From Shigella phage KRT47: a stretch of DNA of 64,000 nucleotides. Below are positions 2,448 through 63,709 of the stretch, piece by piece. The position numbers were made by a program, and so were the translations under genes. The first letter of the stretch is position 1, and every line of letters begins with the position of its first letter. A model generated the notes under the pieces. That model saw only the letters and a list, made by a program, of their open reading frames with translations. It had not been told where the DNA came from and made no database searches. The stretch is taken from sequence record MN781580. One strand, 5' to 3'.

Positions 2448-4264
2448 TACTGGCTCATCCATTCTTTACGAAGGTCAGCATTATCTCCCATGAGCATTTC
2501 AAAAAGCTCTTTCCAATTCTCAGGAAGTTTAACAACATCATATACTGGATTTTGAATCATCTCACGATATTCAGATTTTTCCAAAGAGCCAAGTCCTTTA
2601 ATATAACGGATGCTATGTTTAGGTAGAGCATCTTTGGCACTCTCATATTCAGCGACTGTATAAAACCATTCTTGTTTTTTACCGACCTGAGCGATGATTA
2701 CAGGAGTTTTGACAAAGCGAATTCGTCCTTGCTCAAACAGTTCTGGCCAATTACTAAAAAATCCAAGAAGAGAAGGATAAATGCTTCCTAAACCATCATG
2801 GTCAGCATCGGTCATAATAGCAATATTATGATAATTCAAGTTTTCAGCTTTTTCACCAAGAACTAATCCAGTGATTGCGCAAATATCAAATAGTTCTTTG
2901 TTTTTAAGCATATCAGCATATGACATACCCCAACTGTTGAGAACTTTACCACGCAATGGATAACCACCGTGAAGTTCTTTATCACGAACATCAATAAGAT
3001 ATCCGATAGCCGAATCACCCTCGGTTAAGAACAATGTAGTATCAGCATCTTTACCGCACAGATTAGCTTTAATATGTTTATGAACCTTTGCCTTAGAAGC
3101 CTTTTTAGCTGCTTTAGTTTCAGCTGCTTTTTCTGCTGCCAATTTACGAGCTAGTGCAGCTTCAATAATTGGCATTAAAATTGCTTCATTATTTAAAATA
3201 GCGCGTGAAATCTTTTTAGCGTCAAGTTGAATATGACTACGGATTTCACCAAATGGAGAAGTCAAACGCTCTTTAGTTTGAGAATCAAATCGCATGTTTT
3301 TCATATCACGGACAAACATAACGATAGTCAAACATTCTTTGACACGTGCTTTAGTTACATCAATTTTGAACTTACGTTTGATTTGTGGAATAAGGTCTTC
3401 ACAAATATCATCCATAACACAGTCAATGTGATGGCCACCATTCTTAGTGTGAATGTTATTCACATAAGTTAATTGGCGAAATCCATCCGGTGAACGACCA
3501 ACCGCAATAGAACAATTTTCTTGTTCTTGAACAATAGCATGTTCATCATACTGTCGTGCATATTTCTTAAAATTGCCCTGAACCTTTTTACCATTAAAGG
3601 TAAATTGAATATCAGGATAAACAACAGCAAGTGTCTGGAGACGATCTAGTGTAATGTCAAGATAAACTTGGGACAGCTCATTAGTTTCAAATGACATAAA
3701 ATCTGGAATGAAAGTAACACGAGTTCCTTTCCATTTTCCAGGAATAGTTTCCCAGGATTTATTTTCCATGCCATTTGAACAACGAACTACAATATTATTT
3801 TGACCATCGCCAGTTTCACCGACAAACATCACAGAAAAAATGTTAGTTAAACTAGAACCAACACCATTCATACCACCGGTGACACGTTCTTTATCATCAC
3901 CAAAGTTACCACCCGCTTTTGGAATAGTCCAAGCAGCAACTGGACCAGGAATTTCTTCACCGGTAGGTGTTTTAACCATCGCTTGTGGAATACCGCGACC
4001 GTTATCTTCAACTGTTACCTGATTATTTTTAATGGTAACATTAATTTTATTCGCGAATTTAAACTTAGTACGAATACCTTCATCGACTGAGTTATCGATA
4101 ATTTCATCAATAAGCTTAACAAGACCAGGTACATACTGAACACTTTCCCATTTACCAAACAGAAAGCGCTCATGCATTTCATTAGCAGAAGAGCCAATGT
4201 ACATGCCACTACGCTTTTTGATATGTTCAATATCGCTCAGAATTTTAATTTCATTCTTAATCAT
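2447..4264 (-). CDS. 39: DNA topoisomerase II large subunit, uninterrupted GyrB-like protein (GHKL ATPase + TOPRIM), 605 aa
   Basis: GHKL ATPase motifs N-terminal, TOPRIM-like EGDSA motif C-terminal; ATG at 4262-4264 (track start is an upstream GTG). Confidence 0.9.
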   Translation of the reverse strand: MIKNEIKILSDIEHIKKRSGMYIGSSANEMHERFLFGKWESVQYVPGLVKLIDEIIDNSVDEGIRTKFKFANKINVTIKNNQVTVEDNGRGIPQAMVKTPTGEEIPGPVAAWTIPKAGGNFGDDKERVTGGMNGVGSSLTNIFSVMFVGETGDGQNNIVVRCSNGMENKSWETIPGKWKGTRVTFIPDFMSFETNELSQVYLDITLDRLQTLAVVYPDIQFTFNGKKVQGNFKKYARQYDEHAIVQEQENCSIAVGRSPDGFRQLTYVNNIHTKNGGHHIDCVMDDICEDLIPQIKRKFKIDVTKARVKECLTIVMFVRDMKNMRFDSQTKERLTSPFGEIRSHIQLDAKKISRAILNNEAILMPIIEAALARKLAAEKAAETKAAKKASKAKVHKHIKANLCGKDADTTLFLTEGDSAIGYLIDVRDKELHGGYPLRGKVLNSWGMSYADMLKNKELFDICAITGLVLGEKAENLNYHNIAIMTDADHDGLGSIYPSLLGFFSNWPELFEQGRIRFVKTPVIIAQVGKKQEWFYTVAEYESAKDALPKHSIRYIKGLGSLEKSEYREMIQNPVYDVVKLPENWKELFEMLMGDNADLRKEWMSQ

Positions 4265-4598: not shown

Positions 4599-4970
4599 TC
4601 ACTCAAATTTAATGGCTTGAAGAAGACTAATAATTCTCAAGCGACTTCTTTCATCTTTAACTGTAAAAGAAAGAGGGTCACCAGATTTCATAGTAATAGT
4701 ACATTCAAAATCAAAATCTTCTGTGACTTCTTCGAAGAAGTCAAATTCTTCAGCATAAATTAGAACATTACTCTGCATACTGTGAAGAATTTTTCCGTTA
4801 TTTCCAGACGCTGTACTAATCATCGTAACATTATGACCTTTCATATCTTCAACGATAAATTCGCTTGTAGATATTACAGCATTAATAGAACCATTCCTAT
4901 AAATAGCAGACATTAGATATTTCTTTTCTTCGCCTTCGCGAATACGATATTTCTTACCGATTTTAAACAT
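4599..4970 (-). CDS. Hypothetical protein, 123 aa
   Basis: ORF with ATG at 4968-4970 immediately after the stop of the upstream zinc-ribbon ORF. Confidence 0.5.
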   Translation of the reverse strand: MFKIGKKYRIREGEEKKYLMSAIYRNGSINAVISTSEFIVEDMKGHNVTMISTASGNNGKILHSMQSNVLIYAEEFDFFEEVTEDFDFECTITMKSGDPLSFTVKDERSRLRIISLLQAIKFE

Positions 4971-15981: not shown

Positions 15982-16191
15982 TTAAATTACATGATTATTT
16001 ATAATAAATTCTCGCGGAACGTTAAAATACCCAATTTTAGTTAATATAACAATATCGCCGTTAATAATTACCGGAGAATAATCGGCTGGAGCATTAAATT
16101 TCCAATGGGCTCTAATATTATATCCATCAGAACCAAATGCTCGACTAGCCGGTCTCCCGGCTTTTTGCCATGCATAAAAATCAAATTTCAT
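15982..16191 (-). CDS. Small hypothetical protein, 69 aa
   Basis: ATG at 16189-16191. Confidence 0.45.
   Translation of the reverse strand: MKFDFYAWQKAGRPASRAFGSDGYNIRAHWKFNAPADYSPVIINGDIVILTKIGYFNVPREFIINNHVI
15996..16003 (-). promoter_or_regulatory. Late promoter box TATAAATA upstream of soc
   Basis: Plus-strand tatttata about 31 nt upstream of the soc ATG. Confidence 0.5.
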
Positions 16192-16971: not shown

Positions 16972-17172
16972 ATGGTACAAAAATTAATGGCACTTGTTAA
17001 TGCCATCAAAGGTAATAAAAAGCGTATAGCTTTTACTATTTCTGCTATGGTAGGAATTTTACTCTGGAACTTTATTTTATCACCTGTTGCAATTGCACAT
17101 GGTATTAATATTCCAGTAGTTACTCTTGATACATTCGTAGATTTAGCATTTGCTTTAGTTGGGTTAATTTAA
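16972..17172 (+). CDS. Small hydrophobic protein, 66 aa, on the plus strand
   Basis: AAGGAGG SD 4 nt before ATG at 16972; hydrophobic segments; stop overlaps gene 61 stop (convergent). Confidence 0.5.
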   Translation: MVQKLMALVNAIKGNKKRIAFTISAMVGILLWNFILSPVAIAHGINIPVVTLDTFVDLAFALVGLI

Positions 17173-18197
17173 ATCTTAGCATATTTAGATAGCCGCATTT
17201 TAGCCATCAACCCCTGGGCAATATTATTTTTCATATATTCCATAATTTGTTCAGGGGTTGCACCTTCCTTTCTAATCATATCATTAACATCTTTTGATTT
17301 CCAGGGAGATTTATCCCAAAACATAACCCTTTCTCCTGCATCAACTAATTTAGTCATTCGCTTAATAGTGTCAGGATGACGAGGTTCATTATCTAAAACC
17401 CACACACGTCTATCTTTAAATGGAACAACTTCTAGGTCTAATTGACCACCCGTAATAGCTATACCATTTTCAATAAAAAGTGAATCTATAGGTCCTTCTA
17501 GAACATATACATCACCATCTTTAACTCGTTCGACTCCATAGATTTTTGTTGCTTCAGGATAAGCTTTGATGGTGATATATTTTTGGGGAGCATCTTTCTT
17601 TAATGCACGTCCTTGAAAAGACTCAGCTTTTCCATTAGCATTATAAATTGGAATAACAAGACGAGGCTCAGGTATTTCCTTTTTATATGTTCCCGGTGCT
17701 ATGCTATTAACTAATTTAGGCCATTCAGTTGTAAACCAAAGATATTTCCATTTATCCTTTGGAATACAACGAGCTTTTACATATTTTATAATTGCATGGT
17801 CTTCCGCCAGTTTATCTAATCGAACACATGACGGAAGAGATTTAATTATTTTCTTCTCAGGTTGTTTAGGAAGTTCTTTAGGTTTTTCTACTGGACGACT
17901 TTTACCTTTTTCTTTTCTTATTTCAAAGATATACTCACGATATAAATCAGGTTCAAACTCCTTTAAATATATTCCGATTGGTGCATGATAGTTACAGTTA
18001 TAACAATGAATATTTCCTTCATTATTATCACCATAATACCATCCACGAGCTTTATTCTGGTCGGTTTTTGAATCTCCACAAACAGGACATCTAAACCGTA
18101 ATTTAAAAGTTGAACTATTATTTACTTGTGTGAATTTAGGTAAATGAGCTAATGCACGGTATGCAAACTCATTATCAATCCAAGGTATTGATGACAT
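17169..18197 (-). CDS. 61: DNA primase, 342 aa
   Basis: N-terminal zinc-binding CPVCGD...CYNC and TOPRIM-like core; size matches T4 gp61. Confidence 0.9.
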   Translation of the reverse strand: MSSIPWIDNEFAYRALAHLPKFTQVNNSSTFKLRFRCPVCGDSKTDQNKARGWYYGDNNEGNIHCYNCNYHAPIGIYLKEFEPDLYREYIFEIRKEKGKSRPVEKPKELPKQPEKKIIKSLPSCVRLDKLAEDHAIIKYVKARCIPKDKWKYLWFTTEWPKLVNSIAPGTYKKEIPEPRLVIPIYNANGKAESFQGRALKKDAPQKYITIKAYPEATKIYGVERVKDGDVYVLEGPIDSLFIENGIAITGGQLDLEVVPFKDRRVWVLDNEPRHPDTIKRMTKLVDAGERVMFWDKSPWKSKDVNDMIRKEGATPEQIMEYMKNNIAQGLMAKMRLSKYAKI

Positions 18198-18199
18198 TT

Positions 18200-18364
18200 T
18201 TACTCTTCTTTTTCTTTAGATTCCTCTTTTTTCTTTTTAGGAATCTGTTCAGGGCCTTTATTTACTACAGCGCCTGACGTTGTTCCAGTAGAGATATTTT
18301 CAGGATTACCACCTGAATCTCCAGCGACCATATCTTCTTTGATAAATTCTTTATATGTTTTCAT
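18200..18364 (-). CDS. Small protein, 54 aa, with capsid-targeting-sequence-like N-terminus MKTYKEFIKE (not in ORF track)
   Basis: Hand-translated; GAGGT SD; N-terminus parallels the MKTY(Q/K)EFI(A/T)E start of the two internal-protein genes at 61845-62652. Confidence 0.5.
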   Translation of the reverse strand: MKTYKEFIKEDMVAGDSGGNPENISTGTTSGAVVNKGPEQIPKKKKEESKEKEE

Positions 18365-18365
18365 A

Positions 18366-18992
18366 TTAACCTCTATTCATAAAAGCATTAAAAATTTGGT
18401 CATCAATAGAAACATTTACTTTAGACTGTTTTTCAGATGGCAATTCATATCCACATATTACAATTTTATGATCAATATTAAAATACACAGAAGCAATATG
18501 ATTAATGATATTTTCAGTGAAGTCTAAATCGACATCAATATCTTTTTGACCAAAGCCCAAAGGATAAATAATGCGAGTAATTCGATTATCTTTAACAAAG
18601 ATTCCACCGACATACTCTGTACTGCGTTTAAAGTCTACACGCCGACGAAATGAAAAATATTCAGGCTCTCTATGAGCTCGGCTCATAGGACACAACGAGT
18701 AACTAGAATAAGAGATGTCAAATCCTACGCCTTCGATATGAGCCAAAGTGTTATGATTAAACCAATTATAATCGTACGCCAAATCCATTAGATTATAATA
18801 TGTAAAAGGCACCGGATTAACATCATTAGTCACAAGCATATAATTAGCAACTGCTATAATTTCATTGTTTTTAACGAATACAAACCGTGATTGATGCGAA
18901 TGACCTGGACCCGCGTTTTCACGATTAATGATATAACACTGGGCACCTTTATATTTGTATGTATCTTTGCACTTGTGCATTTGATAGAGCAT
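18366..18992 (-). CDS. Hypothetical protein, 208 aa
   Basis: ATG at 18990-18992, overlapping stop of the upstream gene. Confidence 0.55.
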   Translation of the reverse strand: MLYQMHKCKDTYKYKGAQCYIINRENAGPGHSHQSRFVFVKNNEIIAVANYMLVTNDVNPVPFTYYNLMDLAYDYNWFNHNTLAHIEGVGFDISYSSYSLCPMSRAHREPEYFSFRRRVDFKRSTEYVGGIFVKDNRITRIIYPLGFGQKDIDVDLDFTENIINHIASVYFNIDHKIVICGYELPSEKQSKVNVSIDDQIFNAFMNRG

Positions 18993-19285
18993 TATTCACC
19001 TACCACTTCAGCGATGATATTTTTGTTATTAAAGTTTTTATCGCAATACAGAACATAATTATACTGCATTACACCACCAGACTTAAGTTGTTTTTGCACT
19101 TCAGCTTTCATTTCAGGACGATCGCGCTCAACGATATTCATAATATCCGCTTCAATTTGAGTTTCAACTTCAGTCTGATCCGCAGTCATAGACCATTCAC
19201 ACAAATCTTTATCATAACCTGCCATAGCAGGCTGAGCAGCACAAGAAGCTAAAGCAAAAATTGTGGCAAAGATAAATTTTTTCAT
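18992..19285 (-). CDS. sp: Periplasmic Spackle-like protein, 97 aa
   Basis: Signal peptide MKKFIFATIFALASCAAQPAMA; size and position match T4 sp as recalled. Confidence 0.65.
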   Translation of the reverse strand: MKKFIFATIFALASCAAQPAMAGYDKDLCEWSMTADQTEVETQIEADIMNIVERDRPEMKAEVQKQLKSGGVMQYNYVLYCDKNFNNKNIIAEVVGE

Positions 19286-19345: not shown

Positions 19346-19642
19346 TTATTTTAAAACTTCTGCGTAATCACATGTTACAAACTGTTTCTCTAGCTTGACG
19401 ATTTTACGAAAGTATCTTTTGCATTGGCGAATCTGTCGCTTCGTAGGACGTACAGCAAACTTAATAAATTCCACTCGACCAAATGGAGGACTTTCTTCTG
19501 CTGGAATATCTAACACCAATTCCCACGTATCTGCAATAAGTGCTTTGAATTGAGTATTTTTCCTGATGTTATACGGTGTAGGTTTAAATAAAACAATATG
19601 CATATTATCCTCGGCAATCCACTTCACATACTTTCTTGTCAT
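19346..19642 (-). CDS. Hypothetical protein, 98 aa
   Basis: ATG at 19640-19642 (track starts at TTG one codon upstream). Confidence 0.5.
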   Translation of the reverse strand: MTRKYVKWIAEDNMHIVLFKPTPYNIRKNTQFKALIADTWELVLDIPAEESPPFGRVEFIKFAVRPTKRQIRQCKRYFRKIVKLEKQFVTCDYAEVLK

Positions 19643-19787
19643 CAATGAAAGCTTTAACTAATGCTTTATTAACTTCAGCATATTGAGTAGTAGCCCATTG
19701 AACGTCATCTTTCATCATTGTGATTTCTTTAGTAAACATGCTTTCATTCTTAAACCACCCCATAAAAACTACCTTTACCAATTCCAT
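19605..19787 (-). CDS. dmd: Dmd-like small protein, 60 aa
   Basis: MELVKVVFMGWFKNESMF... recalled as T4 Dmd; strong SD; first gene after an early promoter. Confidence 0.6.
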   Translation of the reverse strand: MELVKVVFMGWFKNESMFTKEITMMKDDVQWATTQYAEVNKALVKAFIDDKKVCEVDCRG

Positions 19788-56473: not shown

Positions 56474-56481
56474 TATTTATA
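56474..56481 (-). promoter_or_regulatory. Late promoter box TATAAATA upstream of the rI.1/rI unit
   Basis: Plus-strand tatttata about 26 nt upstream of the 56448 ATG. Confidence 0.45.
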
Positions 56482-61844: not shown

Positions 61845-62318
61845 TTATTTGAACGATTTAACGTACTGAATAGAACCTTTACTATTTACAAAGGCAATTT
61901 TACCATTTTTATTATACATGGTAGCAGTACGTTGATAGCCATAAGTTTGTTTACCAGATTGATAACCAACTAATGCAAAATTATCTTCACCCATTTTATT
62001 CTGTTTAGCGCGAATGCGTTCATGACCATGTGCCATAAGAACCTTAGCGTCGCCAGTTGCAATGGATCTACGAGTTTTTTCATCTTCAACTGTATTAACA
62101 AAGTCGTCAAATGAATCAAATTTAGCATGAGATTTATTATACAGTTTTCCATCTACTGCATAATTATATCCCTGTACATCCATCTCAACTTCTGTACCAT
62201 CATCCAATACAGCAGTGATTTTTTGACCTTTTTTAAATTTCAAAAGATCAGTAAAAGATTCAGCAATAATTTGAGAATTAATAGCTGCTTCAGTAATAAA
62301 TTCTTGATATGTTTTCAT
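61845..62318 (-). CDS. Internal (capsid-packaged) protein with capsid-targeting sequence, 157 aa
   Basis: N-terminus MKTYQEFITE matches the T4 internal-protein targeting sequence; position next to e. Confidence 0.65.
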   Translation of the reverse strand: MKTYQEFITEAAINSQIIAESFTDLLKFKKGQKITAVLDDGTEVEMDVQGYNYAVDGKLYNKSHAKFDSFDDFVNTVEDEKTRRSIATGDAKVLMAHGHERIRAKQNKMGEDNFALVGYQSGKQTYGYQRTATMYNKNGKIAFVNSKGSIQYVKSFK

Positions 62319-62334
62319 GTGTATCCTTTAATTT

Positions 62335-62652
62335 TTATTCTTTAGGGAAGTTTTTAGAATATGCATCATAAAGCTTATTTCCAATACGGCGGAAAACTCT
62401 AGCAGCAAAACGATTTTCTGGGTTTTTAATCATGATTTGCATCATATAAGTACCCGCGTCAGAAAGAGCTTCTTCATAGTACCCGTTAATTTCTTTAAGA
62501 GTCCTACGTTTACCACCAGGACCATCAACAGTGATTTTCCATTTACCTGTAGAAGTGCGACTTGGCGGCTCAACTTGTTCAATCCAGATATAACCGCCTT
62601 CTACACGTTGTCCTGCAGCAGATTCTGCAATAAATTCTTTATACGTTTTCAT
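62335..62652 (-). CDS. Internal (capsid-packaged) protein with capsid-targeting sequence, 105 aa
   Basis: N-terminus MKTYKEFIAE; basic protein. Confidence 0.65.
   Translation of the reverse strand: MKTYKEFIAESAAGQRVEGGYIWIEQVEPPSRTSTGKWKITVDGPGGKRRTLKEINGYYEEALSDAGTYMMQIMIKNPENRFAARVFRRIGNKLYDAYSKNFPKE

Positions 62653-62740: not shown

Positions 62741-63709
<969 letters not shown>

Follow-up and report, generated by a model that had tools for sequence, protein, structure and literature searches.

A small gene beside the T4-type primase gene carries a likeness of the gp23 N-terminus and may encode a prohead peptide

Why would a peptide of 54 residues, encoded directly beside a DNA primase gene, begin like a protein bound for the phage head? 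The question is raised by gene 61.1 in a 64,000-nucleotide (nt) stretch of Shigella phage KRT47 (sequence record MN781580), the whole of which is referred to here as the window. An earlier note on this DNA had singled out the open reading frame (ORF), likened its start to those of two internal-protein (IP) genes in the same window, and suggested that it might supply an extra small peptide that is packaged into the head and injected with the DNA. The T4 head is among the most thoroughly dissected of all virus heads, and the localization of proteins to its scaffolding core is still termed mysterious (PMC9958956). By its sequence, gp61.1 (MKTYKEFIKEDMVAGDSGGNPENISTGTTSGAVVNKGPEQIPKKKKEESKEKEE) is composed of an internal-protein-type leader, a putative junction for the prohead protease gp21 in the register of gp23, and a copy of the N-terminus of mature gp23 (gp23*) with a basic tail, three elements that are conserved together. 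The likeness of the mature part to the gp23* N-fist is what is new here. We favor the reading that gp61.1 is a small paralogue of the gp23 N-terminus that is targeted to the prohead and processed by gp21, and we give this reading just under an even chance. The gene and its three segments are as follows.

18200-18364, minus strand: gene 61.1 coding sequence, 54 residues plus stop codon, ATG start (ORF list; PHROG 1823)
18335-18364, minus strand: codons 1 to 10, MKTYKEFIKE, a leader like the capsid-targeting sequence (CTS), ending in I-x-E, a putative gp21 site (CTS comparison)
18251-18334, minus strand: codons 11 to 38, DMVAGDSGGNPENISTGTTSGAVVNKGP, paralogue of the gp23* N-fist, gp23 residues 66 to 93 (BLASTP, profiles, hhalign)
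18203-18250, minus strand: codons 39 to 54, EQIPKKKKEESKEKEE, a Lys/Glu-rich tail encoded by an A-rich run

A leader of the internal-protein type

The first 10 residues of every candidate start in the window (1653 starts, from ORFs of at least 30 residues) were compared with the T4 CTS, MKTYQEFIAE. Two genes of the IP cluster match it at 9 of 10 residues each, gene 61.1 at 8 of 10, and the next best start at 4 of 10.

61845-62318, minus strand: internal-protein gene, 157 residues, leader MKTYQEFITE (PHROG 3155, "internal virion protein," E value 6e-102; DUF7412)
62335-62652, minus strand: second CTS-bearing gene, 105 residues, leader MKTYKEFIAE (PHROG 3966, function unknown)

The near-identity of MKTYKEFIKE to the IP starts, which the earlier note had remarked upon, is therefore borne out: there are only three such starts among the 1653, far beyond what chance would give. 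The leader of gp61.1 departs from the T4 CTS at positions 5 and 9 only. Over the first 30 nt, gene 61.1 is identical to each of the two IP genes at 26 positions, as these are to each other, and the DNA 5' of the leader in gene 61.1 is unrelated to that of the IP genes. Amber-suppression mapping of the IPIII leader assigns targeting to residues 4 and 7 and processing to residues 8 and 10 (PMC9026906); gp61.1 keeps all four of these determinants, Y4 and F7 for targeting and I8 and E10 for processing. The I-x-E ending that had been expected is present as I8-K9-E10, a putative gp21 processing site in register with L63-T64-E65 of gp23.

The same positions can be followed into gp23 itself, where residues 57 to 65 of the phage RB18 protein, QAFGSFLTE, place F59, F62, L63, and E65 at the CTS-equivalent positions 4, 7, 8, and 10. 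The internal-protein CTS may imitate, or stem from, the gp23 propeptide junction. Phage RB49, whose 61.1 leader is MIGFKQFVEE, was scanned from 0 to 82 kb for other ORFs with this leader, and there were none. The IP genes of the window encode 157 and 105 residues and T4 ipIII and ipII ~193 and ~100 (from coordinates in PMC9697503 Table S2), a comparison of lengths alone, and the differences fit the known variability of the IP locus.

The mature part resembles the gp23* N-fist

BLASTP aligned residues 2 to 38 of gp61.1 with residues 57 to 93 of RB18 gp23, gapless and with identities at 16 of 37 positions (E value, 1e-8). In this alignment, the E10/D11 junction of gp61.1 lies exactly on E65/A66 of gp23, the site at which gp21 cuts to mature the capsid protein and remove its 65-residue propeptide (PMC5694885). 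A profile built from 14 family members and run against the PDB (177,635 distinct sequences in all) matched chains of T4 gp23 alone (6uzc, E value 9.3e-6; mature gp23*, E value 4e-4), and hhalign returned 94% probability over gp23 residues 55 to 97. A hidden Markov model (HMM) of 75 family sequences recognized gp23 of RB18, of vibriophage nt-1, and of the two Aeromonas phages CC2 and 65.2 at 43 to 56 bits, and neither the window nor the fetched loci contained anything else that it matched. Searched against 1.84 billion representative sequences, the narrow 14-sequence profile brought up no full-length gp23 among 51 clusters at an E value of ≤1e-3; the gp23 link was obtained from the pairwise, PDB, and broader-profile searches.

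Both families share the pattern G-D-x-G-x4-I-A/S-x-G-x-T/S-S/T-G-x-V/I-x3-G-P followed by basic residues, which in the window protein reads GD-G-N--NI--G-TSGAV---GP, and in relatives of gp61.1 the similarity extends to about residue 42, corresponding to about gp23 residues 97 to 101. An artifact of Gly/Ser/Thr composition was considered and rejected, given an HMMER bias of 0.3 bits, the gapless alignment, the register of the cleavage site, and gp23 as the sole PDB match. The earlier note had described what follows the leader as Gly/Ser-rich and then Lys/Glu-rich. As a statement of composition this holds (Gly/Ser/Thr-rich, then Lys/Glu-rich), but the first of these stretches is not arbitrary filler: by the BLASTP, PDB profile, hhalign, and HMM results, it is a paralogue of the gp23* N-fist. 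The mature part contains no further hydrophobic-x-E site, as read from the sequence.

The N-fist is the unusual 25-residue N-terminus of gp23*, which touches four subunits and helps build the Soc site (PMC9958956). In the unexpanded prohead, the gp23* N-terminus is disordered and directed inward, probably contacting the scaffolding core, and it is externalized upon expansion (PMC9546572). The motif region of gp61.1 is likewise predicted to be disordered (predicted local distance difference test score of <50), in parallel with the gp23* N-terminus of unexpanded proheads. Over residues 57 to 93, with the cleavage Glu in register, gp23 (PDB 5VF3, 6UZC, and 7VS5; PMC9958956, PMC9546572) is homologous to gp61.1; unlike gp23, gp61.1 has no HK97-fold body and has a poly-Lys tail where gp23 has its N-arm. 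The motifs in 61.1 and in the gp23 N-fist are old and separately conserved paralogues.

Pfam returned no match to gp61.1 even at an E value of 10, and thus neither PF07068, which begins at gp23 residue 88, nor an HK97 body. Some records nonetheless name the product of 61.1 "major capsid protein," "major capsid domain-containing protein," or "putative head morphogenesis protein," odd automated names that arise from the similarity to the gp23 N-fist. The "major capsid protein" names are misleading: gp61.1 is homologous to a segment of gp23 and is not a capsid protein.

Anatomy of the family

The family core reads (E)-x-[MV]-[VI]-A-G-D-[SA]-G-G-x3-N-I-A-S-G-x-T-[ST]-G-x-V-x-x-K-G-P-x3-G and is followed by a Lys/Arg-rich tail; most members have 5 to 11 Lys or Arg in the ~20 positions next to the core. 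A [LIVMFYC]-x-E site ends 3 to 4 residues before the (A/G/S)GD anchor in 74 of the 80 members, both short and long, which is the spacing of L63-T64-E65 in gp23. This fixed spacing of the putative cleavage site, retained even in long forms that would lose a whole domain, is the strongest argument for the reading in which gp21 processes the protein.

Short forms, found in T-even-like and many other phages, have a leader of 10 to 15 residues of the type M-K-[TS]-[FY]-x-[ED]-[FV]-h-x-E. Long forms of 120 to 190 residues (PHROG 2086; KVP40 gp61.1) carry a ~100-residue helical N-terminal domain instead, and the window protein matches phrog_2086 at positions 109 to 154 only, so that this domain is absent from it. 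The long forms of KVP40-like, Aeromonas, Acinetobacter, and other T4-like phages share with the window form the C-terminal motif, the cleavage-type site, the Lys tail, and the position before the primase gene; they differ in that the 10-residue leader is replaced by the ~100-residue helical domain. Neither Pfam nor NCBIfam recognized anything in the short or long forms.

Several variants extend this picture. Sinorhizobium phage phiN3, which lies outside the Straboviridae, encodes a homologue of the long-form N-domain one gene upstream of its primase (positions 2026 to 2451 of the fetched locus; E value, 2.6e-23), with only a degenerate tail, IVE/VEGSAVPSTNTGNIPDTVAKKSPVLKRKEK. A minimal 61.1 occurs directly after the helicase stop codon in six IMG/VR contigs (L044 to L049; in L044 at 3998 to 4170), with a leader of ~7 residues, LKQLVEE/VVAGD..., and probably starts at a non-ATG codon. 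In three metagenomic proteins (P0040, P0053, and P0058), the 61.1 motif and Lys tail run in frame into a second leader-like stretch, M.E..(N/D/G)FK(Q/A)F(V/M)E, nearly the RB49 61.1 leader, and then into a ~100-residue domain with no PHROG match; these ORFs look like a polyprotein with several hydrophobic-x-Glu sites. The T6-type 61.1 (62 residues; P0002 and P0004) has the tail KKKKRNLKKKKSKNVINTLD, still Lys-rich, and its ORF would overlap the start of gene 61. A frameshift in the A-rich tail-coding run (18203 to 18250 in the window) would account for this tail.

Identity and coding status of gene 61.1

The window is a Tequatrovirus segment, with RB18, Kha5h, and slur phages nearest at ~99% identity, and the ORF is the known and uncharacterized T4-family gene 61.1; it is thus not new as an ORF. 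Its T4 counterpart is T4p034 (18966 to 19130; UniProt P39228). Residues 1 to 54 match positions 1 to 54 of phrog_1823 (E value, 7e-34), residues 1 to 42 are 100% identical to 61.1 of T2 and RB14, and PHROG annotates the short and long forms only as "unknown function." The description of the ORF as unannotated applies only to the annotation track that the earlier note had used, 61.1 being annotated as "hypothetical" in T4, T2, RB18, RB14, JS98, and RB49. Comparison with the 61.1 genes of T4, T2, and T6, which that note had proposed, finds the ORF conserved and the T6 type different in its C-terminal tail.

18370-18373, minus strand: Shine-Dalgarno sequence GAGG, 5 nt 5' of the ATG (read from the sequence)
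17169-18197, minus strand: gene 61, DNA primase (ORF list and RB18 annotation)
18366-18992, minus strand: gene 61.2, or adfA, the anti-DarT factor (Pfam PF23813, E value 2e-135; PMC9391042)

The TAA stop codon of 61.2 occupies 18366 to 18368, 1 nt separates it from the start of 61.1, and 2 nt separate the stop of 61.1 from the ATG of gene 61. With gaps this small and a Shine-Dalgarno sequence 5 nt before the ATG, 61.2-61.1-61 form a tightly coupled operon. A tblastn search with gp61.1 hit 1432 phage records, whose hosts include Escherichia, Klebsiella, Acinetobacter, Aeromonas, and Vibrio, and the HMM search of the 1.84 billion representatives gave 51 clusters at 50% identity. Between genera, the proportion of nonsynonymous differences is 0.16 to 0.38, that of synonymous differences is saturated at 0.64 to 0.80, and the ratio of nonsynonymous to synonymous rates (dN/dS) is 0.08 to 0.35; the family is under strong purifying selection. 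That the 54-codon ORF beside the primase gene is a real gene follows from the tblastn spread, the low dN/dS, the Shine-Dalgarno sequence, and the fixed synteny.

Synteny and phyletic pattern

All 63 of the 63 IMG/VR loci have a co-oriented primase homologue after 61.1, at a gap that is usually 3 to 100 nt and at most 658 nt, and the gp41 helicase gene lies upstream within 4 kb in 57 of them. Aeromonas phages CC2 and 65.2 have the order 41 - 61.1 - 61. T-even phages have a variable anti-toxin-antitoxin (anti-TA) island (dmd, tifA/61.4, sp, and adfA/61.2) inserted between 41 and 61.1; the dmd, tifA, and adfA block has been described as such an island, with "other genes attractive candidates" (PMC9391042). 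Gene 61.1 borders the island and yet stays fixed to gene 61 while the upstream genes change. In the window, the island is laid out as follows, beginning with 61.2 (AdfA, anti-DarT) at 18366-18992 on the minus strand.

18992-19285, minus strand: sp (spackle)
~19346-19645, minus strand: 61.4, or tifA (anti-ToxN)
19605-19787, minus strand: dmd (anti-RnlA)

An extra 357-nt ORF (RB32ORF033c-like, "some similarity to gp61.2") lies between 61.1 and 61.2 in RB18, Kha5h, slur phages, and T2 (2767 to 3123 of the RB18 locus and 176 to 532 of the T2 locus). It is absent from the window at 18365/18366, and there the megablast match of the window to its relatives splits in two. On the other side of gene 61, between it and gene 56, a 66-residue ORF (16972 to 17172, plus strand) is annotated in RB18 (RB69ORF029w-like) and named "putative head morphogenesis protein" in T2 record AP018813; a terminator-like hairpin at 16984 to 17009 overlaps its start.

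In four Straboviridae genera, gp23 has the N-fist motif and gene 61.1 is present as well. The motif is missing (HMM score below 0) from gp23 of S-RIM2 (a Kyanoviridae cyanophage), barely (Ackermannviridae), Vibrio phage K442, and Rhizobium phage RL2RES, and neither the 61.1 core nor the N-domain was found within 3 kb of the primase gene in S-RIM2, maane (Ackermannviridae), or K442. Among the phages compared (four genera with both, four outgroup phages for the gp23 motif, and three for 61.1), the motif and 61.1 thus occur together only in Straboviridae, which ties 61.1 to a feature of the capsid rather than to T4-type primases as such. The co-occurrence may reflect a single evolutionary event.

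How gp61.1 might act in the head

Under the favored reading, gp61.1 would be made from the early 61.2-61.1-61 transcript and persist, and its leader would direct it to the scaffolding core while the prohead assembles. Cleavage by gp21 after Glu10 would free a 44-residue peptide with its N-terminus in the register of gp23*; in long forms, the ~100-residue helical domain that stands in the leader's place would be removed at the same site. The predicted cleaved product would be recognizable as the semi-tryptic peptide DMVAGDSGGNPENISTGTTSGAVVNK, with MKTYKEFIKEDMVAGD... as the uncleaved counterpart. The freed peptide would then have its effect either while the prohead matures or in the finished head. 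It could fill the sites that bind the N-terminal segment of gp23, those on the scaffold of the prohead or, after expansion, those on neighboring capsomers; alternatively, its basic tail could keep it with the DNA.

A more specific form of this proposal makes gp61.1 an overlooked head-assembly component across the Straboviridae, in which the core would deliver, and gp21 set free, an N-fist peptide that fills gp23 N-terminus sites left empty by the shell or times expansion. We regard this form as rather improbable. Such empty N-fist sites may lie, for example, beside the gp24 pentons or the portal, which themselves lack an N-fist, and gene 61.1 would be the evolutionary link between the internal-protein CTS and the gp23 propeptide junction. 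The injected internal peptide of the earlier note is a subcase of the favored reading, and the N-fist homology and deep conservation suggest an assembly or structural role instead.

Known head proteins offer partial parallels. IPI, IPII, and IPIII share with gp61.1 the decapeptide MKTY(K/Q)EFI(K/A/T)E, including the residues on which targeting (4 and 7) and processing (8 and 10) depend, and are also small and Lys-containing. They differ in being hypervariable, in lying near gene e behind late promoters, and in carrying folded anti-restriction payloads, whereas gp61.1 is conserved across Straboviridae, is encoded in the early primase operon, and has a disordered capsid-segment payload. The rapid replacement of payloads that marks the hyperplastic IP locus is not seen in 61.1, which is conserved from Escherichia to Vibrio and Aeromonas phages. 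The comparison with internal proteins thus stands for the leader (Y4, F7, I8, and E10, with the site in 74 of 80 members) and fails for the evolution of the gene, with its conserved payload and fixed place by the primase. The small proteins gp67 (PIP) and gp68 of the prohead core, from which internal peptides derive, would be processed by gp21 at hydrophobic-x-Glu, as is proposed for gp61.1, with short peptides left within or close to the head; unlike 61.1, their genes belong to the late head cluster 20-67-68-21-22-23, and there is no sequence similarity. Gene 40, for a head vertex assembly chaperone, lies like 61.1 in the early replication module (uvsX-40-41-...-61) and is transcribed early; its sequence is unrelated and, unlike that of 61.1, its function is experimentally established. 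Since gene 40 resides in this module, location is no bar to a head role for 61.1.

Several results weigh against the favored reading. His72 and Tyr74, invariant in gp23, are replaced in 61.1 by Ser/Ala and by Gly, and pairing 61.1 with the cognate gp23 in six phages revealed no lineage-specific covariation (~15 to 17 of 32 identities whatever the pairing). The long forms lack a CTS-like leader, and phiN3 keeps the N-domain near its primase without the N-fist motif. The absolute synteny with primase could equally accompany a replication role. Over the 38 kb upstream of 61.1, as far as 56474, the coding strand has no exact late promoter (TATAAATA). We know of no extra N-fist-like density reported in the 3.3- to 3.4-Å capsid maps. 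In T4, the 61.1 transcript is classed as "early," and the protein was undetected in a time-resolved whole-cell proteome (PMC9697503 Table S2). Nor is gp61.1 among the T4 head proteins found by mass spectrometry (PMC5694885), where a 4.5-kDa peptide would easily be missed.

Early expression is shared with recognized head genes, as T4 ipII, ipIII, and gene 40 have "early" transcripts and "late" proteins (PMC9697503 Table S2). A scan for MotA boxes upstream of 61.1 gave no match. CTS fusions supplied from a plasmid are reported to have been synthesized before infection. Such plasmid-expressed fusions get packaged (PMC9026906), so early synthesis alone is no bar to packaging. Two exact late-promoter motifs stand in tandem near the IP genes.

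63249-63256 and 63262-63269, minus strand: two exact late-promoter motifs, TATAAATA, in tandem, just upstream of the lysozyme gene e and the IP cluster

The window holds five exact matches to this motif, and 10.5 would be expected by chance; the other three are at 15996 to 16003 and 56474 to 56481 (both minus strand) and at 4898 to 4905 (plus strand).

In the searchable literature, which mostly excludes subscription journals and where an earlier mention is possible, nothing links 61.1 to a CTS, to gp23, or to virions, and no report places gp61.1 in virions; "gp61.1" appears there in two gene tables only, and automated annotation names alone hint at the link. We stop just short of an even chance because no report of gp61.1 in particles was found, because the gene is transcribed early and its synteny with primase is absolute, and because the long forms lack a CTS.

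Alternative explanations

The alternative that survives best, although we consider it unlikely, is that gp61.1 never enters the head and acts in the cytoplasm as a mimic of the gp23 N-terminus, made early to prime, titrate, or blind a gp23-recognizing factor before the flood of gp23. Candidate partners are GroEL/gp31, EF-Tu, gp22 or the gp21 zymogen, and a host sensor of capsid protein. An early transcript with no late promoter, strong and specific similarity to a gp23 segment, and predicted disorder of the kind expected of a binding peptide would all suit such a mimic, as would the place of 61.1 at the edge of the anti-toxin block of dmd, tifA, and adfA (PMC9391042); EF-Tu, moreover, is bound by the first quarter of gp23 (PMC3014915). 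Mimicry leaves unexplained both the constant spacing of the hydrophobic-x-Glu (74 of 80 members) and the internal-protein-type leader of the T-even form, and the spread of 61.1 over phages of Escherichia, Klebsiella, Acinetobacter, Aeromonas, and Vibrio is far broader than that of usual counter-defense genes. The gp23 N-terminus reportedly directs proteins to GroEL, an observation attributed to Snyder and Tarkowski in 2005. The similarity ends at about gp23 residues 97 to 101, just where the Gol/EF-Tu region, which we take to span about residues 93 to 122, should begin; the Gol core is not copied. Gol/Lit mimicry was rejected, the similarity stopping short of the most conserved region of gp23, the one by which Gol is defined.

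A role in replication, as an accessory of the primase-helicase gp61/gp41, is also unlikely in our estimate, and slightly more so. Its Lys tail could bind, for example, DNA or the acidic tail of gp32, and the gp23 likeness and the leader would be evolutionary leftovers without a function in the head. The locus speaks for it, since primase always follows (63 of 63 loci), helicase precedes in 57 of these, and 61.1 is often directly between the two; so do the early transcript and the translational coupling of 61.1 to gene 61 in the window. In phiN3, the N-domain homologue adjoins primase without the N-fist motif, which indicates that the N-domain is a separable module that stays near primase. However, T-even phages, which have lost the N-domain, keep the N-fist-like peptide under strong purifying selection, so that the conserved function lies in the gp23-like part. 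A head gene, gene 40, lives stably in the same module, and cyanophages, Ackermannviridae, and K442-type phages have a T4-type primase with neither an adjacent 61.1 nor a gp23 N-fist. The 61.1 family matched no replication protein in Pfam, NCBIfam, or fold comparison.

Very improbable, in our judgment, is a decoy substrate or regulator of the prohead protease that, on entering the core or on meeting stray active gp21, competes with gp23 for cleavage and so tunes the timing of maturation instead of supplying a structural peptide. The copied gp23 cleavage junction and the residues just downstream of it could serve as an exosite. A head contains ~930 copies of gp23, against which an early gene is expected to supply a low stoichiometry. 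The decoy also largely overlaps the favored reading in that it needs targeting and cleavage too. Finally, a chance ORF or a dead leftover from recombination of gene 23 with an IP leader, which the short length, the low-complexity tail, and the lack of detection in one proteome might have suggested, is effectively refuted by the 1432 phage records, the 51 clusters, a dN/dS of 0.08 to 0.35 with saturated synonymous sites, the good Shine-Dalgarno sequence, the tight coupling, and the fixed synteny.

Implications

Annotations that call the ~50-residue gp61.1 a "major capsid protein" are corrected by these results. Should the head hypothesis fail, there would still be a widespread family of capsid-mimicking peptides, encoded between helicase and primase, that needs an explanation. 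If the favored reading is true, gp61.1 would be a candidate component of the head or prohead, of ~4.5 kDa, possibly overlooked through 50 years because it is small. It would also be a natural probe of the role of the N-fist in expansion and stabilization, and the link between the CTS and the capsid protein's own propeptide junction would provide a concrete hypothesis for the target that the CTS binds.

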